Translations under genes and position numbers: made by a program
Shown: one piece after another, positions 14,064 to 34,965 of the stretch
How positions within the stretch are numbered: the stretch's first letter is position 1
How the letters are laid out: every line of letters starts with the position of its first letter
Notes under the pieces: generated by a model
What the model was told of the DNA's origin: nothing
The model's input: only the letters and a program-made list of their open reading frames with translations
Database searches by the model: none
DNA from: Pseudomonadota bacterium
GTDB taxonomy: Bacteria; Pseudomonadota; Gammaproteobacteria; JAADHS01
Direction: 5' to 3'
Assembly: GCA_021821045.1 (NCBI GenBank)
Contig: JAKACW010000007.1
Location: 25,983 to 89,982, forward strand
DNA length: 64,000 nucleotides

Positions 14064-15299
14064 TTACTTCAGTTCAATCTGCTTTGGACTAATCGCAAGT
14101 CCATATGCGCCTTTCTTTCCGGCCGTTTCCAGCATCTTCTCAGAAATCTCGTAACGAATACCGTTCTCATCAAACACTTGCCGAGGCTCGAGCCAGCGCC
14201 GCAAGTTTTTCGGCAGATGCTCGTGAAGAATGTCATTGATACGAATGCAGCGGGAATCAAACCACGTAGTCCTCATACCGCTTTCGAGGGCTCTGATTGT
14301 TCGATCCTGGACGGGAAACCGGCGCTCGTCCAAATTCGACAGCATGTCAATCGCGTCGGTGTTGGCGAGTGTGTCATATTCGCCGACGTCGAAGCCCTCC
14401 AGGCGTAGCAATTCGTCCACGAACAGTCGTGACAAATCACTATCGTGCTCTTCTCCGGGCCGCCGCACTGTCGCCTCCCCGTCACGGGTGACCCGCGCCA
14501 GCATTCGGAAAAAGGCGTATTCGAGGGGCCCTATCTTAAGCGTCTCTTTGTGACCGTTCGCGCGATCCACGATCTGCACTTCGGCCCGGTCCGCCGGCAA
14601 ACACAGATGGATGTCATGGGGTCGATTGCCGAGGTCAAAAAGCGCCATGAGGTTCCGAAAACTCAACTGAGTCCCCAAACGCGACAACTCCTTCTCCGGC
14701 AGCTCCTCTCGCATTCGGATGAAAGGGATATCCGCCAAAACGACTTCTGCATCCTTGGGGTGAACGGTTCTTTTAAGACGGCTATTTTCAAGTACTGTGT
14801 CGTCTCGCGTCGGAAAAAAGAACCCGGGTACGCCTTCGAACTCCTCCGACACCAAAACATGGCTCAGGCAGTCCTGATGCCGCCCGAACAGGCTCATGGC
14901 ATACCCAAGATAAAAGGTCATCGTTTTCCTGCCGCCCGCGATCGATGCGTGAATGTTCACGTTGGCGTCTGTGGCAATATCCCGCACCTCCTGGGTGATG
15001 AAGTCCGCTAATGCCTCATGATCCGCGAGCGACCGGGCATCCTCGACCGGATTTCCGTTAGCGCCCGGGACGACGCGAATGTGATCGTCGCTGAACGAGG
15101 GCTGCGGCTGCTCGCACTGCGCGCAAAGGGCCGCGATTTGCCCGGCAAGCCCGCTGCTTATCGCAATGTCTTTTCCCCGCTGCGTCGTAATGATCCGGAT
15201 CGAATCCGGCCAGGCCAGCTTCTGTTTATTTATGGCGTAAAGCGTCTCCGTTACAACCGCCGGTGACAGGCCCGTCACGGCCAATAACATCGTTCTCAT
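14064..15299 (-). CDS. CRISPR-associated CARF-domain protein, Cas_NE0113 family-like
   Basis: N-terminus MRTMLLAVTGLSPAVVTETLYAI matches the signature start of the NE0113 CRISPR-associated family, which has a CARF Rossmann fold. 411 aa. Adjacent to csx1. Confidence 0.6.
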   Translation of the reverse strand: MRTMLLAVTGLSPAVVTETLYAINKQKLAWPDSIRIITTQRGKDIAISSGLAGQIAALCAQCEQPQPSFSDDHIRVVPGANGNPVEDARSLADHEALADFITQEVRDIATDANVNIHASIAGGRKTMTFYLGYAMSLFGRHQDCLSHVLVSEEFEGVPGFFFPTRDDTVLENSRLKRTVHPKDAEVVLADIPFIRMREELPEKELSRLGTQLSFRNLMALFDLGNRPHDIHLCLPADRAEVQIVDRANGHKETLKIGPLEYAFFRMLARVTRDGEATVRRPGEEHDSDLSRLFVDELLRLEGFDVGEYDTLANTDAIDMLSNLDERRFPVQDRTIRALESGMRTTWFDSRCIRINDILHEHLPKNLRRWLEPRQVFDENGIRYEISEKMLETAGKKGAYGLAISPKQIELK

Positions 15300-20201: not shown

Positions 20202-20791
20202 TGCCCCTCCCCCACCATTGCCAGCCCCGTCAAGCGCTCCGCCAGCACGGCGCAATTGCCATCTTTCCCAGCCTCGCCCGTTGCGCGGCCGAAATATTCG
20301 CGATAATGCAGCGCCGCCCGGCGCCCACCCGCGCGCTCGGTCAGCGGCACGATCAGTTCACCGATGGCGGCCGTCGACAACCGTGTCCAGGCGCCATCGA
20401 GATCGTCGGCCTCTGCCGTCTGGCCCCACAGGATGTATTGGCCATCCTTCATCCCCTTCAGCTTCCCGACTTCCTTGCGATCCCAACCCGGTATATCGCC
20501 ATCGCTCTCGGTCAGATAGCCGGCGCGGCCGCTCTGGTCGCGCTGCGGGATTCGCAACCAGCGCAGCTCCCCCTGCGCATCGAAGAAGCGCGCCTCATAA
20601 ACGGTGTCAAGATCGAGCACGCCGCTCGCGCTGCATACCGCCCCCGCCTCATAGCGGACGAAGCCGGTCGCATGCGCGGCATAGTAAAACCCCACCAGAG
20701 CGCGCTCGCCCGCGACCACGCGCACCGCGTCCTGCAACCCAACTTCATTGTTAGTGAAACATAACAATCGAATGGTATCGGCCTCGCTCAT
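20198..20791 (-). CDS. Hypothetical protein within the type III effector operon (about 198 aa from MSEADTIR)
   Basis: Positioned between two RAMP genes with tight spacing. No family recognised; Csx19 is possible but unverified. Confidence 0.4.
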   Translation of the reverse strand: MSEADTIRLLCFTNNEVGLQDAVRVVAGERALVGFYYAAHATGFVRYEAGAVCSASGVLDLDTVYEARFFDAQGELRWLRIPQRDQSGRAGYLTESDGDIPGWDRKEVGKLKGMKDGQYILWGQTAEADDLDGAWTRLSTAAIGELIVPLTERAGGRRAALHYREYFGRATGEAGKDGNCAVLAERLTGLAMVGEGQ

Positions 20792-20792
20792 C

Positions 20793-22376
20793 TCATGCCC
20801 CGCTTGTCTGCTGATCCATCCACTGCGACCATGCCCGCTTCCACGTCTCGAGACGATCGCCGATCTCGCCAAAGTCGAATCGATCGTCCGCCGATTGCTT
20901 GCTTTGCACTACCCGCGTCTGACCTGACTCGTCCTGCCACTGCCACTCGATCATCGACACCTCGACGGTGCCGTAACCCCGGTTGGCACCAAAGCCGAAC
21001 TTGAGCCATCCTTCGCACCAATCGCGCATGACCGCGAACAACAGCGTGGCCGCCACTTCATCGGTCACCCCATCACTGCCCTCGCGCCCCAGACGCAAGC
21101 GCAATTCGATCGGCTCCCACTCGACACCATAGGGTTCAATCGCGGAGTACAGGGCACCGTCCACGGGCGCGGCGGTCCAGCGATCGACGGCAACATGAAA
21201 AGCCTGTTCGAACCCGGGGATGCGCTGGCCGAGCCGCTGGCCGAACGTTCCATGAATGTCAGCGGACTCCCCGCCCTTGGCAGAGGCCAGCCAATCCCAA
21301 TCGTTCCGGTCGATAGCCACATTCGACGAATAACAGCTGCCTATTCCCAACCAGCCGCGCGCGCCGCTGTCGAGGCTGACCGCTGACTCACCTCCCTTTT
21401 TGATCTTCTTGCCGCGCGCATGACCGAACAAGTCCGTGACGATGGGCGCATCGAGCTGCGCCAAATGACGCTCACCCACCCGCACGCTTTCCCAGCCTTC
21501 AGCACCGAGTCCCAATACGGTGCGCACGATTCTCTCGGCCTGGGCGCGCAACACGCCCTTGATCGAACTACCGGGCAGCACCAGTCGCAGCTTGGCGCCA
21601 TCCGCGGACATCAAGGGAAGCATGTCCACGGCCAGGCCGTCCTGGCCCGCCATGACCATCAAAGGGCCTTTCGGCTGCCAATGCACGCGCACCGTCAACG
21701 TGCGGGAATTCACCGGCCGGACAGCCGCAGCCTGACTCCACAATTCCTTATCCGCGCCATCACTCTCCCGGCGCAACACGGCCAGCACGCCCGTACGACT
21801 GGTCCAATCCTGCTCGCGACATTGCGCCTCCAGCAGTTCAACGCGCGCCAGACCGCGCGTCGAGCCGGCACCGATGCCGATCTCCCGCCGCTCCAACGCC
21901 GTCTTCAAATGCCACAACAGTGCGCGCCCCTCGTCCGCCATTGCATCATTTGACGCATCCAGACGCACGCAGAAACTGAACTGTGTCCCCCGCGGCAACA
22001 CCATGCGCTCATACTTGACCCTCGTCGCCGCCACGCCGTACTGGCGGTCGATGCCGTTGCCGTGCCAAACCTCCGGCACCGGGTCCCCCCTGGCCACGGC
22101 ATCATCGACGATGATGCGGCTGGCCGAACCTACATCGCTGCCCCATTGGATGCCACCCCACAGGGATGTCGGCCCGTCCTCATCGCCAACATGACCGCGC
22201 GCCCACTCGCGCAACGCCCCGGTCAACGATGTCCCTGGAATGTAATAGCGCCCTTGGCCGTTCATGCTCAGCGGCATGTCGACCTCCAGCCCGTCATCGG
22301 CCGAGCCCACATGCAGTGGATCGATGGCACGGAGCGTGCCCGTCAGAATGAGACGTCTCGCTAACGATCTCGCCAT
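20793..22376 (-). CDS. Double Cas7 (RAMP) fusion protein
   Basis: Two RAMP modules: LTGTLRAIDPLHVGS...RYYIPGTSLTGALRE and LRLVLPGSSIKGVLRAQ. C-terminal G-rich loop GFGANRGYGTVEV. Confidence 0.7.
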   Translation of the reverse strand: MARSLARRLILTGTLRAIDPLHVGSADDGLEVDMPLSMNGQGRYYIPGTSLTGALREWARGHVGDEDGPTSLWGGIQWGSDVGSASRIIVDDAVARGDPVPEVWHGNGIDRQYGVAATRVKYERMVLPRGTQFSFCVRLDASNDAMADEGRALLWHLKTALERREIGIGAGSTRGLARVELLEAQCREQDWTSRTGVLAVLRRESDGADKELWSQAAAVRPVNSRTLTVRVHWQPKGPLMVMAGQDGLAVDMLPLMSADGAKLRLVLPGSSIKGVLRAQAERIVRTVLGLGAEGWESVRVGERHLAQLDAPIVTDLFGHARGKKIKKGGESAVSLDSGARGWLGIGSCYSSNVAIDRNDWDWLASAKGGESADIHGTFGQRLGQRIPGFEQAFHVAVDRWTAAPVDGALYSAIEPYGVEWEPIELRLRLGREGSDGVTDEVAATLLFAVMRDWCEGWLKFGFGANRGYGTVEVSMIEWQWQDESGQTRVVQSKQSADDRFDFGEIGDRLETWKRAWSQWMDQQTSGA

Positions 22377-22396
22377 GACTAGTAGCCCCCTCCCAA

Positions 22397-24676
22397 TTAT
22401 TGGCGCTCGCGCGCGCGCAGCTCGCTGCGAATCGCAGCAATCCACAATGCGCGGAGCGCATCCCAGCGCAGCTCCGGGAAATCCTCCAGATCAGCCCCGC
22501 CCAGCAAGGCCCCGCCCGCCTTGTCGTTGATGAGCTTGAATGCCCTTGTTGGATCCTTTTCCAAGCAATCCCTTAACTCATCGCGCGTTCGATCGTTCCA
22601 GTTGTCGACACGGTTCTTCACTGCGCCCAGGTGCTGCAACCACTCGCGCGCGCGTTGGCGCGCGGCGTCGTCTTTTACCGCCACGACCACACTGCGCAAG
22701 GCACCGAGCTGACTGTTGGTCGGTTTGCCCGGCGCCAATCCAAGCGTGTCTTTTCTGAAAGAAGCGCTCCCGGCCAGCTCGACGGCATAACGCTCGATGT
22801 CGCGCCGGGAGGCTCTGAGCCGCAACCGTCGAATGAATGCCTGATCCTCCTTGCTAAGAGAATGCGCCGATCCTTCCTCGTCCCTGCGATCGAGCGACGC
22901 CCTCTTGCTTTTGAGTGTGTCCTCTTCCAGCACCGGCGCATTGAAACGCACCTCACCGTAGCCCTCGGCCACGCGCTCACCCAGACCGCGCATTTCCAGC
23001 GCCAGCGACTTCTGGCCATCGACATTCCCGTCCGCTTGAAAACGCACGACGGTCCCCGCTGCCAGGCCGACATACGAGGGCCGCGGCAAATTCCACGCAT
23101 GGCGCCACCCTTCACTGCGTCGCATTCGCGCAAATGAGTTTTCACTGGCTCGAAGGCCCACGCCCAACTCCTTTTCCAACTCGACGCGCAAGACCTCGGT
23201 GTCAGCGCAGGGCGCCAGCGTTGCATCACGCAGCAGCAGGTCCGAACACAGCCAGACGTCGAGATAGGCGCAGGGCGGCCGCGGCATCGGGTCGTCCTCA
23301 GCCTTGAAAGCAATGCGAACGCGACCGAAGTCATCCTTCTTCGCCTTACCCAAGCGATACTCACCAGCACCGTCGGCCAGCAACGCCCCTTCAAGCTTGT
23401 CTGCAACGGCCGCCGTCATCACGATTTCCGAGACATAACGCAATCCGGCTGGCAGCGCCTCGAAGGTATAGACTCCCCCCACTTCCGACGTCGGCCTCTG
23501 GGTCTCGTCCTCGATCGTGCCGTGAGTAAACGCTTCGACGGACGGCTTGAGGTGATAGAGCAGCTTCGCCTGATGATCGTAGGCCAGATAGCCCTCGCGC
23601 ATGGGTTTGCGCTGAATGCTATCCCCAGGCTCGCCCTCGAGAAAATTGCTGACATCCGCCCCGTTGCTTTTCTCCTTCGGCGTGTGGAAAGACAAGGGAA
23701 TCGGCAGCCCGCGTTGGTTATGGGTCAGAGGATAGGCATTCAGCACCCGCAGTTCACCGCGCGCCACGCAGCCGAAGTACGCTGACCCGACCGCTCGCGC
23801 CATGCGCTCATTCAATGCCGACAGCAGGAAGGTTCCCGGGATGTAATCCTGACTGGTGACCACGTTACCCATTACCGCCTGCGCAATCACCACCGGCGAC
23901 AGCAGATCGATCTCCACGCGCAGACGCTTCCACCCGCCATCTTCGGCGTGGCTCCCTCGCGGCGTGAAGCGCTTGGGCTCCGTCACTCTCTCAGTGACGA
24001 TTGCCGGGGGATCGCCAGCGAGAACCTTCAGCGCGTCCTCGGCCGCGATCAGGTCGCCCACACCAAAGTGGCAGCGCCCCAACCCACGGCGACGATTGGC
24101 CCCGAGGCGCTCGACGACTCGAGCCCCCGCCCACAACAACGCCAGCATGGCTTGCGTCTGTGCTTGGTCCTCGGGCAGGCTCACGACACAATCGGCCGAC
24201 AGGACACAACCCCCGATCGCCACCTCCTCCAGCCGCAGACAGTCCTCCTCCGCAACGCCGCGCGCATCCAGCTTCACGCCGGGCTTGATGAACGTCAGTC
24301 CTTGCCGCAGACCGCTCTCTTGCTCCAGCTCGGCCCGCACGGACTCCGACAAGCGCGCTTCGCGCACCGATAAGTGCGCGGCCAGCGGCGCACGTCGCCG
24401 CCGACTACCCTTGCCCGACTCATCGATCGCGCCAAATATCGCTCGCACGACATCGGCCCACGTGGCAGCCGCGCCACTCTCGCTATCCAGCCCCGCCGCA
24501 ATCTGCTCGCAGGCGTCACGCCAGATTCCGGTCAGCGTCTTGGCCGGAACATAAGGCAGATCATCCTGCGGATGACGGCGGATCAGACTATCGATGAAGC
24601 CGGGCGCGCCCGCGCCTTGGCTGACCTGCCAATCGCTATCGAAACGGACCTTGAGTGTGAATGCTTTGTTGATCAT
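22397..24676 (-). CDS. Multi-domain RAMP protein: Cas7-like plus a second RAMP (Cas5-like?) plus a C-terminal alpha-helical (Cas11-like?) domain
   Basis: Start FTLKVRFDSDWQVSQGAG...LPYVPAKTLTGIWRDA (Cas7-like). G-rich loops GANRRRGLGRCHFGV and RLGKAKKDDFGRVRI. Second RAMP core DYIPGTFLLSALNE. Helical Arg/Glu-rich tail. 759 aa. Confidence 0.6.
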   Translation of the reverse strand: MINKAFTLKVRFDSDWQVSQGAGAPGFIDSLIRRHPQDDLPYVPAKTLTGIWRDACEQIAAGLDSESGAAATWADVVRAIFGAIDESGKGSRRRRAPLAAHLSVREARLSESVRAELEQESGLRQGLTFIKPGVKLDARGVAEEDCLRLEEVAIGGCVLSADCVVSLPEDQAQTQAMLALLWAGARVVERLGANRRRGLGRCHFGVGDLIAAEDALKVLAGDPPAIVTERVTEPKRFTPRGSHAEDGGWKRLRVEIDLLSPVVIAQAVMGNVVTSQDYIPGTFLLSALNERMARAVGSAYFGCVARGELRVLNAYPLTHNQRGLPIPLSFHTPKEKSNGADVSNFLEGEPGDSIQRKPMREGYLAYDHQAKLLYHLKPSVEAFTHGTIEDETQRPTSEVGGVYTFEALPAGLRYVSEIVMTAAVADKLEGALLADGAGEYRLGKAKKDDFGRVRIAFKAEDDPMPRPPCAYLDVWLCSDLLLRDATLAPCADTEVLRVELEKELGVGLRASENSFARMRRSEGWRHAWNLPRPSYVGLAAGTVVRFQADGNVDGQKSLALEMRGLGERVAEGYGEVRFNAPVLEEDTLKSKRASLDRRDEEGSAHSLSKEDQAFIRRLRLRASRRDIERYAVELAGSASFRKDTLGLAPGKPTNSQLGALRSVVVAVKDDAARQRAREWLQHLGAVKNRVDNWNDRTRDELRDCLEKDPTRAFKLINDKAGGALLGGADLEDFPELRWDALRALWIAAIRSELRARERQ

Positions 24677-25044
24677 GCTGATTTCCCTTCTGCACGCTCA
24701 ACCGTGTTTTCAGGCACGAAGAACGGAATCGAGACCAACGCATCAAGGAACCGTGTCACTCTGGTCGGCGGCTCGCCCTGCGCCGGCCCATCATCGAAGA
24801 ACAGCCCGCCCTTGCCAAACACTGCGTCAAGCTCCTTATAACGATGCCGAAGCAAGTCGAGCCTCGCCTCAGCGGTCGCGCCGCTGCGCATCAACTCAAA
24901 GCGCAACCCGTGGAGCTGACTTGCTGGAACATTGCTGCGACCGCTGTCCCTATCACGAGCCAGCATGGCCGCAGCCATGCGGCGCAGATCGCCCAGACGG
25001 TGCTGGGCTACCCATCGCGCCGAGTCCTCGCGCATGCCCGCCAA
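24673..25044 (-). CDS. Small alpha-helical protein; candidate Cas11 (small subunit)
   Basis: 123 aa between the Cas10-like gene and the RAMP genes. ATGA overlap with the downstream gene. Call is by position and size only. Confidence 0.3.
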   Translation of the reverse strand: MAGMREDSARWVAQHRLGDLRRMAAAMLARDRDSGRSNVPASQLHGLRFELMRSGATAEARLDLLRHRYKELDAVFGKGGLFFDDGPAQGEPPTRVTRFLDALVSIPFFVPENTVERAEGKSA

Positions 25045-25086
25045 TCTTTCGGCCGGCGTTACGACATAAGGTCCTGCAAAAAGTCT

Positions 25087-26409
25087 CTACGTGATCGCCT
25101 GACCACCGGCATCGCACTGCTGTTCAAGCTGCGAGCGCAGGTCATCGAGCCCAGTGAATGAAGCGTCGAATAACACATGGAAGTCCAGTGACGAACATGG
25201 ATATGGTCTGTCGTCTCCGTCTGCGGTTCGGACCCGCTGCTTAACCGGATCCTTGGCCTGCTTGATCAATTCGGAAGCCAATTCATAAGCGCTGAAGAAC
25301 GGAAACTGCGGCTTGACGATCGCCACGCCGGCGCCCGCGCCGAGATAAGACACGCCGAATGCCCGCTTGGCGATCTCGGAACTGGTCGGTCCCTGTGCGA
25401 TAGCATCTTCGAAAGCGGCCAGATACGTTTCGGTGAACTCCAGCGCGTAAACGCCGTCGATCAGCACCGTGAGATCATCACCGCCCACCACCAGGGGAAC
25501 GACCGGCAAAATGCTCTTGGACTTTCGCCGCCGACGTGGATGGGGCCGCTTCGCCAGAAGCTTACAGGCCTCCGTGAAAGCCTGCTCAGCGGCCGCATCG
25601 ATGTCCAGCGAAAATTCGCGGAAGGTTTGAAGGTAGGCGGATTTGTCATCGCCGCAATACTTCTCGAAGTTCAAGATGATCTGTCCGAACCCGCTCCCGT
25701 CGGCATGCACCACGGCCAGCCAGTCAGCACCCAAATCATCGATCTGATCGGCCAGCTCCAATTCTCTGCTGGATTCGTCGACCGACCGGATCATCCTGAG
25801 GGCGCGATCACGCCACTTCTTTCGAACTTCCTGATCCGACTTCGACACACACATCTGCGAAGTCGTCTCGCCACCGTCAGGACGATTCGCCGCGCCACCG
25901 GAGTGGGCGCAGGGCGCAACGAAAGGCAAACGGGCGAAGCGTGCCAGCGGCTGCGGCCGCGTCGAGCGAATCTGGTTGAACCGCTGATGAAGCTGCACCA
26001 TCACCTGCGGCAGCTTAAGCGGGTCATCGAATTCTTGAATCGCACCGCACACATCCAGGCCCGGCGCCTCTTGCAACGCCCGCAACGTCACGGCCTCGAT
26101 GACGTTCTCTGCCTTATCCTTTGCATCAGTCACAAACAAGGCCTTGCCGGATACCGCGGTGACGACTTCAAAGCCACCCTGGGCACCCGGCTGGCGCAGC
26201 GGCGTGCGCTGCTGACGCAATTTCTCTCGCATCCGTTGGGGGTCGTCGCTCCAGAAACTGGCCCCCCCATTCTCCGCGATGGCTTCCAGCACCCATTGCG
26301 TTCCGGCTCGGTAGATCAGCTCCGAGGCACCCACGTTTTCCCGCAGTTTGTTGGTCGCGAAAACGTAGCTTTGATTACCCGAAGTTTCGATCAGAACAAG
26401 AAACGGCAT
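25087..26409 (-). CDS. cas10: Compact Cas10-like Palm/cyclase protein lacking an HD domain (GGDD motif)
   Basis: Palm strand LAVVHADGSGFGQI and catalytic VVGGDDLTVLIDG. Possible degenerate N-terminal palm FLVLIETSGNQSYVF. No HD motif. Only 440 aa. Confidence 0.6.
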   Translation of the reverse strand: MPFLVLIETSGNQSYVFATNKLRENVGASELIYRAGTQWVLEAIAENGGASFWSDDPQRMREKLRQQRTPLRQPGAQGGFEVVTAVSGKALFVTDAKDKAENVIEAVTLRALQEAPGLDVCGAIQEFDDPLKLPQVMVQLHQRFNQIRSTRPQPLARFARLPFVAPCAHSGGAANRPDGGETTSQMCVSKSDQEVRKKWRDRALRMIRSVDESSRELELADQIDDLGADWLAVVHADGSGFGQIILNFEKYCGDDKSAYLQTFREFSLDIDAAAEQAFTEACKLLAKRPHPRRRRKSKSILPVVPLVVGGDDLTVLIDGVYALEFTETYLAAFEDAIAQGPTSSEIAKRAFGVSYLGAGAGVAIVKPQFPFFSAYELASELIKQAKDPVKQRVRTADGDDRPYPCSSLDFHVLFDASFTGLDDLRSQLEQQCDAGGQAIT

Positions 26410-26557
26410 ACCCCTCCTTTCATCCCAACAACGAACTCGTCGTCATCACTTTGTTAGCACCGCACAGCGGACTGCTCGACTTGGGGACCGTGCTGGCTTT
26501 TCGTTTTGGGCATGACCTTACCAAAACCACGATTGATTACCAATCCCCTGAGCTAAA

Positions 26558-27409
26558 CTAATCCCGCTGGGGGCTTCCCTTTCCGCGACATACCGTTTCC
26601 CCCAAGAACACCACGCCCTCGTAGACTTCGCATACTCGCGTTTTGCGCGCATTCAATTGCAGCCCGAGCCGCCGCAACGCCTTCTCCGCCAACGCGTGGG
26701 CCGTTCGGGAAGAGTCCACGTCTGGCGTCATCAACAAAAAATCATCCGCATAGCGCACAAACGTAATGTTCGCTCGCGCCATTGCGCGATCAAATGCATG
26801 TAAGTAAAGGTTGCACAGAAACGGCGAAATCACGGCCCCTTGCAGCAAACCGCGCCTACCCTGAAGCAGGCCCGAGGTATGAGGCCCTACGTCCAACCAG
26901 GCCTTTACCAAGTTTAAGAGCCAACGATCGCCGAAAGTTCGCTTTACCATGCGCAAGAGAGGGCCATGCGGCACCCGATCGAAGAACTTTTCGATATCGG
27001 CGTCCACCACCCAACGCAACCCCGTATGCACCCGTTCCCGGACTTTCCGCAACGCATGAGGCACACCCCGACCGGGCCGATAGCCGAAGCTGTCGTGATG
27101 GAAGAACGCTTCCGCTCGCGGCTCCAGCACTTGCAGAATCAATCGCTGGGCAAATTTGTCGCGCCGATATTGGGCCGACAGCACGCGCCGTCCCCCATCG
27201 CCCTTTTTCACGGCCCATTGGCGGATCGGCAGCGGCCGATACCGGCCCTCGCGCAACTCTTCGACAATCGTCAACAGATGAAACGGCGAATTCTTCTGCA
27301 AATCTTGCTCCTCGGTACCGGGTGCCCAAGGCGCCGCATCATTGCGCAGCACGCGCCACGCTTGCTTCACATTCGCCGCACAAAGCGCCGTGGTCATGAT
27401 ATCGCCCAT
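26558..27409 (-). CDS. Reverse transcriptase (group II intron-like RT domain, no maturase or endonuclease)
   Basis: RT motifs FGYRPGRGVPHA, WVVDADIEKFFDRV, AVISPFLCNLYLH, YADDFLL, LQLNARKTRV. Second Met at 27397 forms an ATGA overlap with the cas1 stop. Confidence 0.85.
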   Translation of the reverse strand: MGDIMTTALCAANVKQAWRVLRNDAAPWAPGTEEQDLQKNSPFHLLTIVEELREGRYRPLPIRQWAVKKGDGGRRVLSAQYRRDKFAQRLILQVLEPRAEAFFHHDSFGYRPGRGVPHALRKVRERVHTGLRWVVDADIEKFFDRVPHGPLLRMVKRTFGDRWLLNLVKAWLDVGPHTSGLLQGRRGLLQGAVISPFLCNLYLHAFDRAMARANITFVRYADDFLLMTPDVDSSRTAHALAEKALRRLGLQLNARKTRVCEVYEGVVFLGETVCRGKGSPQRD

Positions 27410-28413
27410 GGGTTTTCTTCCTCGCTTCGGCCGAGGACTTTCTGAAAATCGTTGACCACGCCCCTCGCTGCCGTGTCGATGGATTGCTCCTCGGCAACCT
27501 GATCGTCTGCGGTCTCGCCCGGCTGCTCAGCTTGGCGCGCACGCGCCGGCCACTGATCGCACCACAGTCGCCACGCACCATAAAAGCGTGAGCGTGCTTC
27601 CTTCGATAAACGGCAGCCTTCGTGGTCGCTCAGTGTGAAATCCGCCGGTGTTACTTGGCCATCTAACAACCGCAGCACGAAAAGATCCACGCCTGGACGC
27701 AACGCCTCCATCAAGTCGAGCGACAATCCCGGCCGTGCCGGCGCCACTTCATGCAAAAACCCGAGATAGGGATCAAACCCCGCGGCGCACGCTTGGCGAT
27801 GCACCACTCCCAGAGCAAGCGTATAGCCCAACGACAGCATCGCATTCACCGGATCGCGCGGGGGTCGCCGATTGCGCGATTCGAACATCCAATGGGGCGC
27901 CATTTGCGATCGCAGCCAGGCATACCACGCTTTCGCGGCCCGCCCTTCGACGCCCATCAACGCCGCATTGTCCCGAGCCAAAGCCGTATCTTGTTGGCAT
28001 TGGGTCAGAATCGCGCTGCACTCCTGGCCGATTCCCAATCGCTGCAATAGATCACAACCGGCCGCCAACTTCTCCCGCACCATCCAACGTGCCAGAACAA
28101 GACGCCGCCCAAGTTCCTGATATGCGCGGTACTGCCGGGCCCGCCAGTGCACGAAAGAACTCAGGCCACTTCCCAGCCAACACACCTCCCCCTTGCCCCG
28201 CGCCGGCATCAGCGCCACGGGTACGGCACTGTCCGCCAACGCGCGCCATACATCGCAGCGAACCGACGGACTACCGTACACCACCACCGATCCGAGCACC
28301 GCAAGTGGCACCCGTTTAAACGCACCATCGGCGTAATCGATGCGCAAAGCCTTGTTCTCGACGCTGACACTCAGATCGCGCCTGTCGAGTATCAGCGTCA
28401 ACCCGCCGCTCAT
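27394..28413 (-). CDS. cas1: CRISPR-associated endonuclease Cas1
   Basis: Start MSGGLTLILDRRDLSVSVENKALRI. Conserved RRPPRDPVNAMLSLGYTLAL Cas1 motif. The track ORF extends further upstream to 28530. Confidence 0.85.
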   Translation of the reverse strand: MSGGLTLILDRRDLSVSVENKALRIDYADGAFKRVPLAVLGSVVVYGSPSVRCDVWRALADSAVPVALMPARGKGEVCWLGSGLSSFVHWRARQYRAYQELGRRLVLARWMVREKLAAGCDLLQRLGIGQECSAILTQCQQDTALARDNAALMGVEGRAAKAWYAWLRSQMAPHWMFESRNRRPPRDPVNAMLSLGYTLALGVVHRQACAAGFDPYLGFLHEVAPARPGLSLDLMEALRPGVDLFVLRLLDGQVTPADFTLSDHEGCRLSKEARSRFYGAWRLWCDQWPARARQAEQPGETADDQVAEEQSIDTAARGVVNDFQKVLGRSEEENPWAIS

Positions 28414-28760
28414 GCCGCCCTCCCGAAACCGGCCAGCAACCGGGCCAGTAACGACGCCCTTTCGGGTTCCGCGGTCGCCGCCACTTCCGCCACAGGCTGC
28501 CCGGGGCTTGCCATGGCATCGTTCAGCCACAAGCCCGCCGGATGCGGAACGGGATACGCACGCAAGTCGTCTTCAGCAAGATCCATCAGCCCGCTGACTT
28601 CATCGAGAACCTGGGTCAGCCCGTTGCGGTTCGCGCACACCAGGAACACCGATTCCTGTAAAGCCATGCCACGGCGCGAAATGCAGCGATGCACCCGTTG
28701 CAACCGACGCGAGTCGCAAATGTCATAGGACACCAAATGCCAGCGCTTCGAAAAGTCCAT
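28410..28760 (-). CDS. cas2: CRISPR-associated endoribonuclease Cas2 (paralogue a)
   Basis: WHLVSYDICDSRRLQRVHRCISRRGMALQESVFLVC...EDDLRAYPV fits the Cas2 fold signature. Stop overlaps the cas1 start. Confidence 0.7.
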   Translation of the reverse strand: MDFSKRWHLVSYDICDSRRLQRVHRCISRRGMALQESVFLVCANRNGLTQVLDEVSGLMDLAEDDLRAYPVPHPAGLWLNDAMASPGQPVAEVAATAEPERASLLARLLAGFGRAA

Positions 28761-28777
28761 GTTTGATCTCCTTTTCT

Positions 28778-29062
28778 TTAAGCCACGTGCAGCCAGCGGC
28801 GGAACAGACTGTCCTGGTCACCCACGCCCCGTCCGTTGACTTCCGCATTGGGCGACAACCAAGCCAGCATCAACTTGTCCCCTTGCGGATCGATCAGCTC
28901 CAGGAGCTGTACGTACAACTCCTCGGCCTCCTTGTGGTTGAGTAAGCACTCGTGCACGGACTTCTGCCCGTCGATGCGCCACTGCTGAAGGCGTTTATGA
29001 ACACGCCGACGGCGAACGGGGTTGCCGATGTCGTACGCGATGATGGCGGGTTTGCGTTTCAT
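28778..29062 (-). CDS. cas2: CRISPR-associated endoribonuclease Cas2 (paralogue b)
   Basis: MKRKPAIIAYDIGNPVRRRRVHKRLQQWRIDGQKSVHECLL...GDKLMLAWL (Cas2-like). Start chosen at MKRKP. Confidence 0.65.
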   Translation of the reverse strand: MKRKPAIIAYDIGNPVRRRRVHKRLQQWRIDGQKSVHECLLNHKEAEELYVQLLELIDPQGDKLMLAWLSPNAEVNGRGVGDQDSLFRRWLHVA

Positions 29063-29133
29063 ATGTTTTCCTCCGGTGGTTGTGATCTTGTGAATGACGC
29101 ACATCGTATGCGCCACAGCTCGGTTCAGGGCGT

Positions 29134-29149
29134 TTCGCAAGCTTGCGAA
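29134..29149. promoter_or_regulatory. Perfect 16-bp palindrome TTCGCAAGCTTGCGAA between cas2b and the CRISPR leader; candidate operator
   Basis: Seen directly. A near-identical copy TCGCAAGCTTGCGA lies at 31524-31537 on the other flank of the array. Confidence 0.35.
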
Positions 29150-29296
29150 GTTTCGCCGCGCCGATGGCGTGGAATTCCGCGGGTTGCCGGCGAGCCGTCC
29201 GCGCTTGACTGGCGAGGCGACGATTGAGGTAGAATTCCGCGCATCGACCTTTGTTCTTTTACAATTTGAAACTGAACGCGCTGCGCGAGCACATCA

Positions 29297-29330
29297 CCGG
29301 CCGCGAAAAAGCTAACTTTTTCGCGGCCGG
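29297..29330 (+). terminator. Perfect 15-bp-stem hairpin followed by TTGACT and a T-rich tract; intrinsic-terminator-like element at the leader boundary
   Basis: ccggccgcgaaaaag-ctaa-ctttttcgcggccgg then ttgactcaaaattttttggtt, seen directly. Confidence 0.4.
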
Positions 29331-29393
29331 TTGACTCAAAATTTTTTGGTTACTAAGCTATTGATTGAGCCGCGGTTTGGAAATGTGACAAGG

Positions 29394-31506
29394 GTTCAAA
29401 CGTGTCCCTGACGAAGAAGGGATTGAGACTTTTTTGCTTGAGCAACGCCTTGCGGGTCGGCGTTCAAACGTGTCCCTGACGAAGAAGGGATTGAGACCTC
29501 ACGGTTTTCGAGTTCATACCGGGAGACGAAGTTCAAACGTGTCCCTGACGAAGAAGGGATTGAGACCTCTGAGCGCGTCCTGTTGGCAAGGTTGCTGGCG
29601 TTCAAACGTGTCCCTGACGAAGAAGGGATTGAGACAGGACGTGGTCGTCTGCGCGGCAAGCGCGCAGGGTTCAAACGTGTCCCTGACGAAGAAGGGATTG
29701 AGACCAAAACGCCTCGTCCCCAAGCAACACAAAGTGGTTCAAACGTGTCCCTGACGAAGAAGGGATTGAGACCCCGGCATTTGCTACCTTGCGGCAGCGC
29801 CTGTTGTTCAAACGTGTCCCTGACGAAGAAGGGATTGAGACCCAGCGCGGCTTGCGCGATGGAAATCTCGCTTGGTTCAAACGTGTCCCTGACGAAGAAG
29901 GGATTGAGACAGGCAGTTGTTGTCACATCAGCCACCCGACAAAGGTTCAAACGTGTCCCTGACGAAGAAGGGATTGAGACGAAAAACGCAGCCCCAACCA
30001 GTCTCCGGCATTTGTTCAAACGTGTCCCTGACGAAGAAGGGATTGAGACGCCCGCGTCGGCCCTCACTCCGGTTAACGGCCGGTTCAAACGTGTCCCTGA
30101 CGAAGAAGGGATTGAGACCAGGGCGGCCTCACGCCCTCTTGTGTCTTCGAGGTTCAAACGTGTCCCTGACGAAGAAGGGATTGAGACGCGTAGCGTCGAG
30201 AGGTCGCGCTTGATCTGTCGGTTCAAACGTGTCCCTGACGAAGAAGGGATTGAGACTATTTTCGCTTGCGCGAGAGCGTTGCCGCTCTGTGTTCAAACGT
30301 GTCCCTGACGAAGAAGGGATTGAGACTAGGGTGTTCGGCGTCGCAAATGTGGACTGGGTGTTCAAACGTGTCCCTGACGAAGAAGGGATTGAGACCGCGA
30401 ATGCAGCGCGAGGGTCAATGTAAGTTGGTTCAAACGTGTCCCTGACGAAGAAGGGATTGAGACTTGATCTCAGAACATGAGGTCGCTGCGGCGTTAGGTT
30501 CAAACGTGTCCCTGACGAAGAAGGGATTGAGACCAGGGCCAATTCACCATCAAAGATGGCTTGAGCGTTCAAACGTGTCCCTGACGAAGAAGGGATTGAG
30601 ACGGAGGGTTCATGCATCGGTGGATCTCCTTTGAAGTTCAAACGTGTCCCTGACGAAGAAGGGATTGAGACGAAGAGGACGAGGCCGGGGGCATCGCAGG
30701 CATTCGTTCAAACGTGTCCCTGACGAAGAAGGGATTGAGACAGCTTCCATCGTTTTATGGAAGCGGCGGATCTAGGTTCAAACGTGTCCCTGACGAAGAA
30801 GGGATTGAGACTTCGAGTACAAAACGGTATGTGGTGTTTTCCAGGTTCAAACGTGTCCCTGACGAAGAAGGGATTGAGACTCGAAGATCCACTCTTTATT
30901 CCTCTTGATAGAGTTCAAACGTGTCCCTGACGAAGAAGGGATTGAGACCCTTCCCCGCCGCCCTGTCCTTCGCCCGACTCTGTTCAAACGTGTCCCTGAC
31001 GAAGAAGGGATTGAGACGTTCACTGGGGGCTAGCCCAGTGAGCCAGTGCGGTTCAAACGTGTCCCTGACGAAGAAGGGATTGAGACATACGAAACGGAGA
31101 CGCCATCGCTGGCTCGAGGGGTTCAAACGTGTCCCTGACGAAGAAGGGATTGAGACGCCAACATACCGCACCGCATCCAGGAACCCTAGAGTTCAAACGT
31201 GTCCCTGACGAAGAAGGGATTGAGACTTGTCCTTCTCGAGCTGCAGCAGGACGCAGTTGGGTTCAAACGTGTCCCTGACGAAGAAGGGATTGAGACACTT
31301 CGGCTTCGGCCTCGAAGGGTGTCTCCGAGGGTTCAAACGTGTCCCTGACGAAGAAGGGATTGAGACTCACAAACAAGGTCGTAGAACGCAGTTTTGCGGG
31401 TTCAAACGTGTCCCTGACGAAGAAGGGATTGAGACTGGTCCGTCGGGACTCCGCAACGATCTCAAAGATGTTCAAACGTGTCCCTGAAAAAAAGGCGACA
31501 AACATT
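29394..31506 (+). CRISPR. CRISPR array: 31 direct repeats (30 intact of 36 bp plus 1 degenerate terminal) and 30 spacers of 32-35 bp
   Basis: Repeat GTTCAAACGTGTCCCTGACGAAGAAGGGATTGAGAC at 29394, 29462, 29531, 29600 ... 31400. Terminal degenerate copy at 31471 (GTTCAAACGTGTCCCTGAaaaaaaggcgacaaacat). AT-rich leader 29331-29393 on the cas2 side. Repeat 3' end ATTGAGAC resembles the type III 8-nt crRNA tag. Confidence 0.97.
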
Positions 31507-31523
31507 CGCGTCCCGCTCCCATC

Positions 31524-31537
31524 TCGCAAGCTTGCGA
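31524..31537. promoter_or_regulatory. Palindrome TCGCAAGCTTGCGA immediately after the degenerate terminal repeat; candidate operator
   Basis: Seen directly; mirrors the site at 29134-29149. Confidence 0.3.
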
Positions 31538-31639
31538 ATGCTCGCGCATGAACCGCTTGTTTTATGCTTGGAGCAGAGCGAGCCGTGGCGGCCGCTTCGA
31601 GCCGGGTACGCACCGCGGCCGGTTAAGGGAAAAGAAACT

Positions 31640-31897
31640 ATGCTTCGTTGCGGCAACTCAATCCGTCTCACCGGCCCCGAATTGGCGGGCCTGGCCAAAA
31701 TCGCCGGCGTTTACCCGGAGAAGATCAACTCGCTCAATGATCTCAGGCGGTTTATTAACCGTCGGCTGCGCGTCTACTGCGGGCCTTCGCCGGAAGAGCG
31801 ATTGTTGCGTGCGCTGCTCATCGAGGAACTGAATCGGTATCGGGATCCGGGCGGCAGGGTGCCGGCCCCACAGTGCGTGGAAAAGGACCACTCATGA
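31640..31897 (+). CDS. Hypothetical small protein (about 85 aa, from MLRCGNSIRLTG)
   Basis: ORF downstream of the array. No family recognised. Confidence 0.2.
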   Translation: MLRCGNSIRLTGPELAGLAKIAGVYPEKINSLNDLRRFINRRLRVYCGPSPEERLLRALLIEELNRYRDPGGRVPAPQCVEKDHS

Positions 31898-32178
31898 ACG
31901 GCTATGACATCATCGGCGACATACACGGCCACGGCGCCGAGGACCAGCGCGGGGTGCTTGCCATCGTGCGGCCTGTGGTGAATTGTGGAAGCGCGCTTGC
32001 GGTGATGGGAAATCACGAATTCAATGCCGTGTGTTTTCACACTCGCCATCCCGAATCCGGCCGCCCTCTGCGCGACCATACGCCAAAGAACCTGACGCAG
32101 CATCAAAGCTTCTTACAACAGTTTCCTCATCCCGCTCGGGATTTATACCCAGAACTTTTCGGACATCCGCCAGGGTGA
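31894..32178 (+). pseudogene. Truncated calcineurin-like metallophosphoesterase (ApaH/PrpE-like) N-terminal fragment
   Basis: MNGYDIIGDIHGHG...VMGNHEFN has GDxHG and GNHE motifs. It lacks the GDxxDRG motif and stops after ~95 aa, where full-length enzymes are about 220-250 aa. Confidence 0.45.
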
Positions 32179-33703
32179 CGCGCCCCGCGCCGACATTGCC
32201 TTCGCCATCCCTTGCTTGCCGCAACATGACTGCCCGCGCGAGGGCTTCACTCAGTTTGCGCATGTCGCGCGCGTTTCCCGACCTTGGGTCGCGCCTGTTG
32301 TAAAGGCTCTGAATATGTCGTTCGAGCGGTGCCCGCCCGCTCTTCTGCAGCGCAATCCCCTCCGCGTCAAGGTCCGCCTCGAGAATAGCCATTAACTGCG
32401 CCGGTGCGTAATCGGAAAACGCCTCGTGTTCAGTGAATCGCGATCTCAGGCCGGGATTGGCTTCGACGAACTTCGCCATGTTCTCCGTGTAACCCGCGGC
32501 CACCACCACGAACTGGCCGCGGCAGTCCTCCATTTTTTTGAGCAGCGTCTCAATTGCCTCGGGCCCAAAGTCCCATGGGGCATCCTTCACCAAGGCGTAG
32601 GCTTCGTCGATAAATAGCACTCCGCCCATGGCGCGCTCGATGGCATCGGCGGTATTCAATGCCGTTTGCCCCACGAAGCCTGCAACAAGCTTGCTGCGAT
32701 CGACTTCGTGAAGATGACCGCGCTCGAGCAGACCGAGCGCGCCGTAGATATTCGCCAGAATCCGCGCGACCGTGGTCTTGCCCGTACCGGGATTCCCGGA
32801 GAAAACCCAATGGTGAACCAGCCTTTTCAAGTAATCCGGATTGTGGCGACGCGCATAACGAACCAGTTCGATGGTCTCATGGATCTTCTGCTTGAACGAA
32901 TCCAGGCCCACCATTGCATTCAATTCGTCCATAGCCTCTTTTAGTCGGGGCTCGTCGATGGGCGCCTGCCAGTATTTGGGCTCGTGCTCGTCACGGACAG
33001 CGATGATGTCCTGCGCTACGATTTGGGATAGTTGCGTGACGCGCTCTCGTTCGGGCAAGTCCATGCATCGAGTGCTGTGCATTATGATCGCCCTTTCGAT
33101 CAACAGCCGGGCATAACGACCGTTAGCGTGGAGGCGGTCTCGCGCGCGATACGCGTCGTTGAAGTTCTGCTCGAGCTCGGAAACGGCGCCATCGCTCAAT
33201 ACAAAATCCTGTTGGGCAGCAATCGCTCGCGCGATCTTCACCATATCCTCGGGCGTGTAATCGTCGAACGTCATGTCAAACCCAAAACGCCCCTTCAAGC
33301 CCGGATTCGATTCCAGGAACGCATTCATTTCGGCAGTGTAGCCCGCGCAAATCACTACCAATCGATCACGGCGGTTTTCCATTTCCTGAACCAGTACGTC
33401 AACCACCTGCTTGCCGTAGTCGACGCCGTTGTTGGAGTTCAGCGCATAGGCTTCGTCAATAAATAGCACGCCGTCCATTGCCTGCTCGATAGCGGACTTG
33501 ATCTTTTCCTCTGTGCCGCCGACGTTCACGCTCACCAGTTCGGCGCGGCCGACTTCCACGACATGACCCCGCTTGAGCAGGCCCAGATCACGCAAAATGG
33601 GACCGACCAGCCGAGCGACCGTGGTCTTTCCCGTACCGGGGTTGCCTTTGAACACGCAGTGTAGATTGAGCGAGGTCTCCCTCAGGTTGCGCCGCTTGCG
33701 CAT
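32021..33703 (-). CDS. Tandem AAA+ ATPase (two CbbX/SpoVK-family modules). As sequenced it is separated by a frameshift from its N-terminal membrane domain.
   Basis: Two copies of GNPGTGKTTVAR (Walker A), GVLFIDEAYAL (Walker B), CAGY/AAGYT and NPGLKGRF/NPGLRSRF modules. 560 aa. Confidence 0.8.
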   Translation of the reverse strand: MRKRRNLRETSLNLHCVFKGNPGTGKTTVARLVGPILRDLGLLKRGHVVEVGRAELVSVNVGGTEEKIKSAIEQAMDGVLFIDEAYALNSNNGVDYGKQVVDVLVQEMENRRDRLVVICAGYTAEMNAFLESNPGLKGRFGFDMTFDDYTPEDMVKIARAIAAQQDFVLSDGAVSELEQNFNDAYRARDRLHANGRYARLLIERAIIMHSTRCMDLPERERVTQLSQIVAQDIIAVRDEHEPKYWQAPIDEPRLKEAMDELNAMVGLDSFKQKIHETIELVRYARRHNPDYLKRLVHHWVFSGNPGTGKTTVARILANIYGALGLLERGHLHEVDRSKLVAGFVGQTALNTADAIERAMGGVLFIDEAYALVKDAPWDFGPEAIETLLKKMEDCRGQFVVVAAGYTENMAKFVEANPGLRSRFTEHEAFSDYAPAQLMAILEADLDAEGIALQKSGRAPLERHIQSLYNRRDPRSGNARDMRKLSEALARAVMLRQARDGEGNVGAGRVTLADVRKVLGINPERDEETVVRSFDAASGSLAYGRAEGGRIRDGECENTRH

Positions 33704-34366
33704 GTCGGCAACACGAGCACGATTGTATAGGTTGTTTTGACGGACTCTATTCCGATGAGCGCCTCCAGCCGCGCCATTGCTTCCTTGCCGTCCATGGTCG
33801 GCGTGTTTGGCACGGGTTCGGCTTTGGCGGCAGAGGCCGGCTGTTCGACCGGCATTGGCTGCGAACGCATCTCAGCCTGCGGCAAATAGGTGCGACGGGC
33901 GGCTTGAAAGGCCATCCGCTCGCGCTCATTCTTGATGTGCCTCCACGAGATCCACCCGATAATGAGCGCAATAAGAACGGTCTCCGTGTTGGCGAAGAAC
34001 ATCACGATAGAGAAGACCAGAGCCGCCCAAGCAACCCAATAGCTCAAGCCGGGCGAGAAGGCCGGATCGCTCCGGCGAAGCAAACGCACCATCCCCGCGA
34101 GTTTCTCAAGCATCAGCAGAACCAGCCAACCCACGGCCCACACCAAGCCGACGCGCAAACCCAGCAAGTAACTCACCGTTAACTCCATACCCGCCGCGGC
34201 CCGTACACGCTCTTGTAGAACAGCCGGATCGGGAACAAGGTAAAGCAAGGCGAACGTTCCCAGCACGAAGGCTGCAAGATTCCTCCCGACGAAGTCGAGA
34301 ACGGCTTTTACGCGAGGCGTTGACACGTAAGGATTCTCCTTTGCTGGGTGACCGAGTGAAGGGCGC
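33682..34366 (-). CDS. N-terminal membrane segment (about 4 TM helices) of the same AAA+ protein, out of frame with it
   Basis: Translation MRPSLGHPAKENPYVSTPRVKAVLDFVGRNLAAFVLGTFALLYLV... ends ...EAMARLEALIGIESVK. This aligns with EAMDELNAMVGLDSFKQK preceding the second AAA module. Frame restores with +1 A in the A4 run of gtcAAAAcaacc (by codon walk, about 33700-33715). Confidence 0.5.
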
Positions 34367-34396
34367 ATTACATCACGGCCGGGGCGACTCGCTGCG

Positions 34397-34412
34397 ATTC
34401 GAAAGCTTGTGA
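34397..34412. promoter_or_regulatory. TTCGAAAGCTTGTGAA palindrome-like motif. With CAAGCTTG copies at 34476-34483 and 34519-34526 it lies in the divergent promoter region between the membrane-AAA+ gene and csx16.
   Basis: Seen directly. Confidence 0.3.
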
Positions 34413-34590
34413 ACCGCGATCCCGTGAAGCCTTCACGACTATTAAAGCCGACACAACCGCCACCGCGGGGATTAACAAGCTTGCATGACGCCCGCCAGGA
34501 ATCGCTCGGGGCGATCGGCAAGCTTGTGGAGGGTCAATGATTCTCCAGAAAATCCCATAATGGTTTCTCAACACGTGCCAGGGAGGAACC

Positions 34591-34965
34591 ATGACTGTAT
34601 TTTTCGTATCCAGACATAAGGGTGCCGTGGGGTGGTCGGCGCAACACGGGCTACGCGTCGACACGCTAGTGGACCATTTGGATCCGCAGGAAGTCCATGA
34701 GGGCGATACGGTGATCGGTTCGTTGCCATTGCATCTGATCGCGAAGGTCTGCGAGCGCGGCGCCCGCTTCCTTCATTTGGCCATCGACATTCCCGCTCAG
34801 TGGCGCGGGCAAGAACTCACGGCGGAGCAGCTTAGTCAGGCGGACGCGCGGCTGGAGGAATATGTGGTACGCAGAATCGGAAAGAATCGCGGTAGGAAAC
34901 CGCTCCCACAACGAACTGAGCTTCCCTTGTGGGAGCGGATCATTCCGCGATTGAATCGGCAGTAG
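34591..34965 (+). CDS. csx16: Csx16-like (Cas_VVA1548 family-like) small CRISPR-associated protein; candidate ring nuclease
   Basis: N-terminus MTVFFVSRHKGAVGWSAQHGLRVDTLVDHLD resembles the FxSRHxGAxxW start I recall for Csx16. The last ~28 codons are supplied by REP repeat sequence starting at 34878. Confidence 0.45.
   Translation: MTVFFVSRHKGAVGWSAQHGLRVDTLVDHLDPQEVHEGDTVIGSLPLHLIAKVCERGARFLHLAIDIPAQWRGQELTAEQLSQADARLEEYVVRRIGKNRGRKPLPQRTELPLWERIIPRLNRQ

Follow-up and report, generated by a model that had tools for sequence, protein, structure and literature searches.

A free-standing reverse transcriptase encoded with cas1 and two cas2 genes in a type III-D-like CRISPR locus

Most of the reverse transcriptases (RTs) that have been linked to CRISPR systems are parts of fusion proteins, with 96 of the 110 in Table 1 of Toro 2017 being RT-Cas1 or Cas6-RT-Cas1 and the other 14 unfused. 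Within the classification of Toro et al. 2018 (Front Microbiol 9:1317), clades 9 and 13 are described as 'RTs not fused to Cas1', and clade 13, which was added in that work, equals branch 7 of Silas et al. 2017 (mBio 8:e00897-17). Listed members of clade 13 include those of Thioalkalivibrio sp. ALgr3/ALE14, Thiohalocapsa, Thioflavicoccus mobilis and Thiothrix lacustris, the hosts being given as Gamma- or Deltaproteobacteria, and Table S1 of Toro 2018 enters the protein WP_018870803.1 of Thioalkalivibrio sp. ALgr3 under clade 13 as 'RT', III-D. The occurrence of two distinct Cas2 proteins has been called 'characteristic of clade 6' and is frequent in clade 13 (Gonzalez-Delgado 2019, NAR 47:10202), and in the RT-Cas1 module of Vibrio vulnificus the deletion of either Cas2A or Cas2B abolishes acquisition (Gonzalez-Delgado 2019, NAR 47:10202). 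The present work concerns four genes, cas2b, cas2a, cas1 and a free-standing RT gene, that occupy positions 26558-29062 on the minus strand of a 64-kb stretch of gammaproteobacterial DNA, this whole stretch being referred to as the window.

An earlier interpretation made from the letters of the window alone, called here the sequence-only reading, had held that CRISPR-linked RTs are usually fused to Cas1, in agreement with the proportion in Toro 2017, and that a free-standing RT in company with duplicated cas2 genes is atypical. The latter opinion is not supported, as both features are already published for clade 13 (Toro 2018; Gonzalez-Delgado 2019). Since a free-standing RT and two diverged cas2 genes have thus been reported before, the architecture is not new, and the module is a further example of a class catalogued in 2017-2018.

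The adaptation genes and the relatives of the reverse transcriptase

Open reading frames (ORFs) and domain matches bear out the minus-strand order cas2b, cas2a, cas1 and RT that the sequence-only reading had proposed. The cas2b gene (28778..29062) encodes 94 amino acids (aa; MKRKPAIIAYDI...) from ATG 29062 and matches Pfam CRISPR_Cas2 with E=8.5e-11, while the product of cas2a (28410..28760), 116 aa in length with a variable C-terminal tail, matches the same family with E=6.5e-13. The two Cas2 proteins are clearly different, as had been claimed, with 26% identity over 58 aa. The next gene, cas1 (27394..28413), encodes 339 aa (MSGGLTLILDRRD...) from ATG 28413, and its product, which matches Pfam Cas_Cas1 (E=6.6e-61) and TIGR00287 of NCBIfam (166 bits), is a stand-alone integrase. 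The RT gene (26558..27409) lies 3' of cas1 in a different frame, and the earlier description of a separate ORF of 283 aa with the YADD motif also stands (FVRYADDF; RVT_1, E=6.8e-34).

At the junction of cas2a with cas1, the TGA stop codon and the ATG start codon form a genuine ATGA overlap at 28413-28410. The same kind of overlap had been assigned to cas1 and the RT gene, with the RT starting at ATG 27397. An ATGA tetranucleotide does exist at 27397-27394 in the region of the cas1 stop codon, but the start assigned to it is the less likely one, and an RT length of 283 aa corresponds to ATG 27409 and not to 27397. Because the N-terminus MGDIM aligns with the N-termini of 24 homologues (MGD-LL, MGE-LL, MGK-LL) and because GAGGA lies 9 nt upstream of ATG 27409 as a Shine-Dalgarno site, 27409 is the most likely start of the RT, which gives an overlap of 16 nt with cas1. 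Four independent assemblies of the locus, designated L001-L004 (one from ENA, two from Logan and one NCBI metagenome-assembled genome, MAG), have 100% identical proteins, identical gene order and an identical cas1/RT junction. Hence the separate ORFs do not result from a frameshift introduced by assembly or sequencing; frameshift or mis-assembly as the cause of the split is ruled out by these four assemblies together with the conservation of split ORFs in the family, and the claim of separate ORFs survived the check for a fused one.

The RT carries motifs RT0-7 and YADD, and its best NCBIfam match is TIGR04416, the group II RT/maturase profile, at 238 bits, which is below the cut-off of 300. 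As this match spans only positions 3-269 of the 353 in the profile, the maturase part is absent from the RT. The protein terminates 13 aa past the FLG of motif 7 and comprises fingers and palm only, with no thumb/X, DNA-binding (D) or endonuclease (En) domain. Its AlphaFold2 model, built on 25 homologues, has a predicted local distance difference test (pLDDT) value of 91.8. When this model was compared by Foldseek with the RT of GsI-IIC, the template modelling (TM) scores were TMq 0.83 / TMt 0.57 and only 57% of the GsI-IIC RT was covered, while crystallised group II maturase fragments that consist of fingers and palm only gave TM scores of ~0.78/0.78. The combination of a high TMq with a low TMt against GsI-IIC, and of ~0.78 both ways against the fingers-palm fragments, indicates that the modelled RT is thumbless. 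When 25 homologues with 45-68% identity to the window RT were aligned, 40 columns proved invariant, among them those of the catalytic residues D138 and Y220-A-D-D223.

A protein search covering 5.8 billion proteins returned >6,000 RT matches, of which the best 120 were inspected. All of these (277-642 bits) are 270-376 aa long and contain RVT_1 only, just as the best 120 Cas1 relatives, at 274-384 aa, all contain the Cas1 domain only, and no Cas1-RT fusion in either order was present in either set of 120. A scan of 185,579 reference genomes led to three separable classes of RT. The first comprises close relatives with 45-52% identity (39% in one case), most of whose ORFs end <=16 aa past motif 7. 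The second consists of RT-Cas1 fusions, which are 34-38% identical and continue for 370-580 aa after the RT region, an extension that the window RT does not have. Group-II-like RT/maturases with 33-40% identity and 100-216 aa after the RT region make up the third. In a neighbour-joining (NJ) tree of 91 RT domains, 27 unfused RTs including that of the window were split from 11 RT-Cas1 fusions and 47 group-II-like sequences in 200/200 bootstraps. The phylogenetic check that had been suggested for this RT therefore places it with unfused CRISPR RTs and apart from group-II-like RTs.

The connection with clade 13 is provided by a relative designated P0011, which is 54% identical to the window RT (313 bits) and whose locus has the identical four-gene order. 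P0011 falls into the same 90%-identity cluster as P0121, which is the clade-13 protein WP_018870803.1 of Thioalkalivibrio sp. ALgr3, and P0121 itself lies inside the group of 27 with the window RT (200/200 NJ bootstraps). It is very likely that the window RT is a member of RT-CRISPR clade 13, a judgement made jointly with that of a general role of the module in adaptation.

The arrangement of the four genes is conserved over a considerable taxonomic distance. The order cas2b-cas2a-cas1-RT was found in 15 of 19 distinct loci of the family, among them those of Thioalkalivibrio, Lamprocystis, Thiohalocapsa, Ca. Electrothrix, Desulfosarcina ovata, Ca. Competibacter and an Acanthopleuribacteraceae MAG; three further loci have the order RT-cas2b-cas2a-cas1, and in one the arrangement is divergent. 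The taxa in which relatives occur are Chromatiales-like Gammaproteobacteria, Desulfobacterota, the one Acanthopleuribacteraceae MAG and one Phycisphaerales MAG. In 12 of the 15 loci of the same order, cas1 and the RT gene overlap by 4-26 nt, the lengths varying within the family (4, 8, 14, 16, 20 and 26 nt) and small gaps occurring as well. Every family locus with cas genes has an orthologous pair of Cas2a and Cas2b. The Cas2b orthologues have 94 aa in nearly all loci, are 33-69% identical to one another and keep the Asp of beta1 (AYDI), and the Cas2a orthologues keep YD[IV]. Correlations between the distance matrices of RT, Cas1, Cas2a and Cas2b (Mantel r=0.60-0.76, p=2e-4) show that these proteins co-evolve, and their genes are translationally linked and co-inherited. 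In the window the module is complete, with an integrase, two Cas2 proteins and intact polymerase motifs.

Additional Cas2 proteins were observed in other contexts. In two of the 11 loci with RT-Cas1 fusions (L034 and L036; 36-37% RT identity) cas2 is likewise present in two copies, one matching Cas2a best and the other Cas2b, in orders that differ, which suggests from sequence comparison that this family shares the duplication of Cas2 with some fused clades. The closest relative, with an RT 71% identical to that of the window, has a third ORF with a Cas2 domain, of 83 aa, upstream of the operon (L088 1027-1278, L089 4021-4272).

The association of the module with CRISPR is a constant one, and most family loci have CRISPR arrays inside the flanks that were examined. 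In five of them (L009, L011, L013, L016 and L090) arrays stand on both sides of the RT or the module, as in the published V. vulnificus locus, and in L013 the RT is found alone between two arrays with no cas1 or cas2 within 8 kb upstream. Both L013 and L020 have a family RT without adjacent cas1/cas2, yet the arrays that flank it have repeats related to those of the window (...CCTGATGAAGAAGGxATTxAGAC). As arrays flank both of these RTs, they give no support to a CRISPR-independent role.

The CRISPR array, the effector genes and sequence variation

Exact matching and Tandem Repeats Finder (TRF) delineate a CRISPR array at 29394..31505 on the plus strand, with 30 perfect 36-nt repeats GTTCAAACGTGTCCCTGACGAAGAAGGGATTGAGAC (30 exact matches against 0 expected by chance) and as many spacers, 32-34 nt in length; a degenerate terminal repeat at ~31470-31505 forms the end of the array far from cas2b. 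Two features, the plus-strand repeat ending in ATTGAGAC and the position of the degenerate copy at the far end, make plus-strand transcription of the array probable, divergent from the cas genes and with the leader adjoining cas2b. The 331 nt between cas2b and the array (29063..29393, plus strand) would accordingly be read as a putative leader and divergent promoter region. Within it, at ~29298-29331, there is a perfect palindrome, CCGGCCGCGAAAAAG-CTAA-CTTTTTCGCGGCCGG, whose stem measures 15 bp; the first repeat begins ~60 nt further on, and TTGACT-17 nt-TAAGCT follows the palindrome on the plus strand. For this palindrome a role as leader motif, as bidirectional terminator or as operator is conceivable. 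A promoter scan of 26300-29500 gave no match to the sigma-70 consensus, and a terminator scan of the same interval gave none in the gap between the RT gene and cas10 and two weak matches only, which lie inside the coding sequences of RT and cas1.

On the other side of the module, the RT gene is separated by a gap of 148 nt from cas10, and the adaptation and effector genes lie on the same strand, so arranged that their co-transcription is plausible. The effector genes, all on the minus strand, begin with a short form of cas10 (24673..26409) that has a GGDD motif and matches Cas10-Cmr2_palm2 with E=7.5e-07. They continue with a Csx10-like RAMP fusion (22397-24676), a double Cas7 (20793-22376), csx19 (~20198-20791; Pfam match of Csx19 on the identical gene in L001), a RAMP of the TIGR03986 family (17670-20255; 307 bits) and cas6 (16666-17673), the matches in this set being to Csx10, Csx7 and TIGR03986 in NCBIfam and to RAMPs and CRISPR_Cas6 in Pfam. 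In its predicted gene content this set (16666-26409) is type III-D-like, with the Cas10 palm and GGDD, Csx10, Csx19, Cas7-type RAMPs, Cas6 and an array all present.

Two accessory genes accompany the locus. One of them (14064..15299, minus strand) belongs to the Cas_NE0113 family (Pfam PF09623, E=4.6e-39), a family that carries a CARF-type sensor domain and that is also found beside the RT module in the loci of Thioalkalivibrio and Competibacter. The other, csx16 (Cas_VVA1548), is an ORF beyond the array (34591..34965, plus strand), identified by the PF09652 match of the corresponding gene in L001, and its family also occurs near the module in L088 and L092. The Cas_NE0113 and Csx16/Cas_VVA1548 families turn up again next to the RT module of distantly related loci (L005, L088, L092 and L093), with a gene for a SAVED domain in L088, which hints that a conserved set of signalling effectors may travel with the adaptation module.

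The reading frame of cas10 is interrupted in the window by an in-frame TAG at 25087-25089 (codon 441), which leaves ORFs of 440 aa and 123 aa. In L002 and L004, codon 441 is TAC (Tyr) and cas10 is a single ORF of 578 aa; over the 7.2-8.7 kb of the locus that were aligned, these two assemblies depart from the window in this TAG/TAC single-nucleotide polymorphism alone. L001 and L003, which have differences from the window at other sites, likewise carry TAG. Since the allele is shared with assemblies that are otherwise distinct, it seems to be a polymorphism of the population, one that shortens Cas10 to 440 aa, and not an assembly error, and interference may be impaired in the window haplotype. 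Beyond the array, on the minus strand, a gene for a tandem-AAA ATPase has a 10-nt deletion (ATTCGCCAGC) at ~33729 relative to L002, so that the 771-aa ORF, which is uninterrupted in L002, is broken into two in the window and in L001, one of 279 aa (33682-34521) and one of 560 aa (32021-33703). The haplotype with the cas10 stop codon thus has a second disruption.

Proposed function and alternative explanations

The identity of the module and its general role in spacer acquisition, held together as very likely, leave room for different activities of the RT. If the RT-Cas1 fusions that have been studied in Marinomonas, Fusicatenibacter and Vibrio vulnificus are taken as a guide, the acquisition of spacers derived from RNA is perhaps the probable one, with somewhat less confidence than, and contained within, that given to the general role. 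According to this proposal, the RT would bind the Cas1-Cas2 integrase non-covalently, the Cas2 bridge of which would probably be a Cas2a/Cas2b heterodimer. The complex would capture spacers from RNA as well as from DNA and would insert them at the leader-proximal repeat, at the end of the array beside cas2b, whereupon Cas6 and the III-D effector would use the resulting CRISPR RNAs (crRNAs) against transcripts.

Several considerations weigh against this interpretation. Acquisition from RNA and the physical association of the RT with Cas1 are both extrapolated from fused systems, and the searchable literature yielded no experiments on clade-13 RTs that are unfused. The phylogenetic tree is distance-based and contains one clade-13 sequence named in the literature and no named member of other published clades such as 9 or 4/6. 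No protospacer was found that could show the source or strand bias of the spacers: the whole array gave no match against 50,697 phage records (blastn, E<=1), three spacer cores had no exact match in IMG/VR, and the spacers had only chance matches of 11-16 nt in the rest of the window. The nonsense codon in cas10 and the frameshifted ATPase gene also make it possible that the system is in decay in this copy.

An RT that serves the module without copying RNA protospacers, the spacers coming from DNA as in ordinary systems, is the most substantial of the alternatives and is nevertheless unlikely. Once integration has taken place, such an enzyme could close gaps or copy the repeat; it could also lengthen or tail DNA prespacers or perform other nucleic-acid synthesis. 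This explanation would suit an RNA origin that is not demonstrable in target searches, and it draws some support from the V. vulnificus RT active-site mutant, which lost ~90% of acquisition and not all of it (Gonzalez-Delgado 2019). The lack of a thumb, which holds the template-primer in other RTs, can likewise be cited in its favour, but the thumbless state is common to the RTs of the studied fusions, and all three of those systems take spacers from RNA in an RT-dependent manner. Moreover, the module adjoins an RNA-targeting type III effector. It is far less probable that the RT is the decaying remnant of a group II intron inserted beside cas1, with no part in adaptation. Although its best NCBIfam match is the group II RT/maturase and its best structural matches are group II intron RTs, this explanation is largely refuted by the 40 invariant columns, catalytic residues included, by a cas1-overlapping position that is kept in 15 of 19 loci of distant taxa, and by the co-evolution of the RT with Cas1 and Cas2. 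Intron RNA beside the RT, which the sequence-only reading had named as a sign of such an origin, was looked for with Rfam: none was present in the whole 64-kb window at the gathering threshold, and at E<=1 the region 24500-31800 gave only weak CRISPR-repeat matches and two chance matches. With neither intron RNA domains nor X/maturase, D or En domains near the RT, the module is not a mobile intron.

The least credible of the alternatives is that the split between cas1 and the RT gene is an artefact, or that the two are joined in vivo into a Cas1-RT fusion by programmed frameshifting. No canonical X_XXY_YYZ slippery heptamer precedes the cas1 stop codon, even though the two frames overlap by 16 nt and the RT frame could be reached from that of cas1 by a -1 shift. 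Independent initiation of the RT is provided for by a Shine-Dalgarno site and an ATG, the junction is identical in four assemblies, the overlaps vary in length and give way to gaps in the family, and fusions in either order are absent from the best 120 relatives of both Cas1 and the RT. Programmed frameshifting was hence rejected as very unlikely on account of the missing heptamer, the variable overlaps and the lack of fused homologues.

A more far-reaching version of the preferred interpretation, that of an RT acting with the integrase in the uptake of spacers from RNA, is possible although doubtful as a whole: the unfused arrangement would be a mechanistically distinct holoenzyme and not a mere split RT-Cas1. 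In it, a free thumbless RT may dock in trans on an asymmetric Cas1(4)-Cas2a/Cas2b integrase, and the asymmetry of the Cas2 heterodimer may position one RT and fix the orientation of spacers such that the crRNAs are complementary to transcripts. Since 15 of 19 loci have the RT downstream of cas1 and none has it immediately upstream, clade 13 would in that case represent an independent solution and may not be the 'adjacent genes' precursor from which the single-origin model derives RT-Cas1 fusions.

The mechanism of spacer capture from RNA is known solely from fused RT-Cas1 and Cas6-RT-Cas1 proteins, and the unfused clade appears large, with at least 120 clusters at 90% identity in the database searched, which come from many sulfur-oxidising and sulfate-reducing bacteria. 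A compact and strongly conserved four-gene operon in which RT, Cas1 and two Cas2 proteins are separable would be a handy system for questions of mechanism, such as how an RT communicates with the integrase without a covalent linker and what purpose a heterodimeric Cas2 serves, and for asking whether separable parts can be of use in RNA-recording tools.

Comparison with described systems

The locus shares with clade 13 as described a group-II-like RT that is encoded beside cas1 and is unfused, a type III context (III-D or III-B) and the frequent presence of two cas2 genes, and it differs from that clade in no qualitative respect. In the Thioalkalivibrio locus the correspondence extends to the order and overlap of the genes, cas2(94 aa)-cas2(115 aa)-cas1-RT, but there the effector operon is divergent, whereas the module of the window lies on the same strand as the effectors and directly upstream of them.

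Outside CRISPR systems, the closest relatives are the RTs of group II introns such as that of GsI-IIC (PDB 6AR1), with 34% identity, motifs RT0-7 and YADD in common. The window RT differs from them in having no thumb/X, DNA-binding or endonuclease domain and no intron RNA. With respect to the fold, it resembles the RT of the Cas6-RT-Cas1 of Marinomonas mediterranea (clade 8) and that of the Thiomicrospira Cas6-RT-Cas1-Cas2 complex (PDB 7KFT/7KFU; Wang 2021), in which the RT domain is also reported to be without a thumb and consists of fingers and palm, with no thumb/X. In a sequence search, residues 45-271 of the window RT matched residues 363-592 of 7kft with E=9.8e-29. Those proteins, however, are triple-domain single polypeptides that work with one Cas2, while the window RT is unfused, and the covalent RT-helix that joins the active sites of RT and Cas1 is impossible in an unfused system.

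The locus of Vibrio vulnificus YJ016 (clade 6) has in common with that of the window a type III-D system, two different Cas2 proteins, csx16 (VVA1548) nearby and an RT with YADD. It is different in that its RT forms the N-terminal part of a 690-aa fusion with Cas1 and in the order of its genes, which is RT-Cas1, cas2A and cas2B, as compared with the window, where the cas2 genes come first and the RT last. By analogy, the V. vulnificus operon, which takes up spacers from RNA in an RT-dependent manner and needs both of its Cas2 proteins to do so, would be the best experimental model for the probable role of the module described here.

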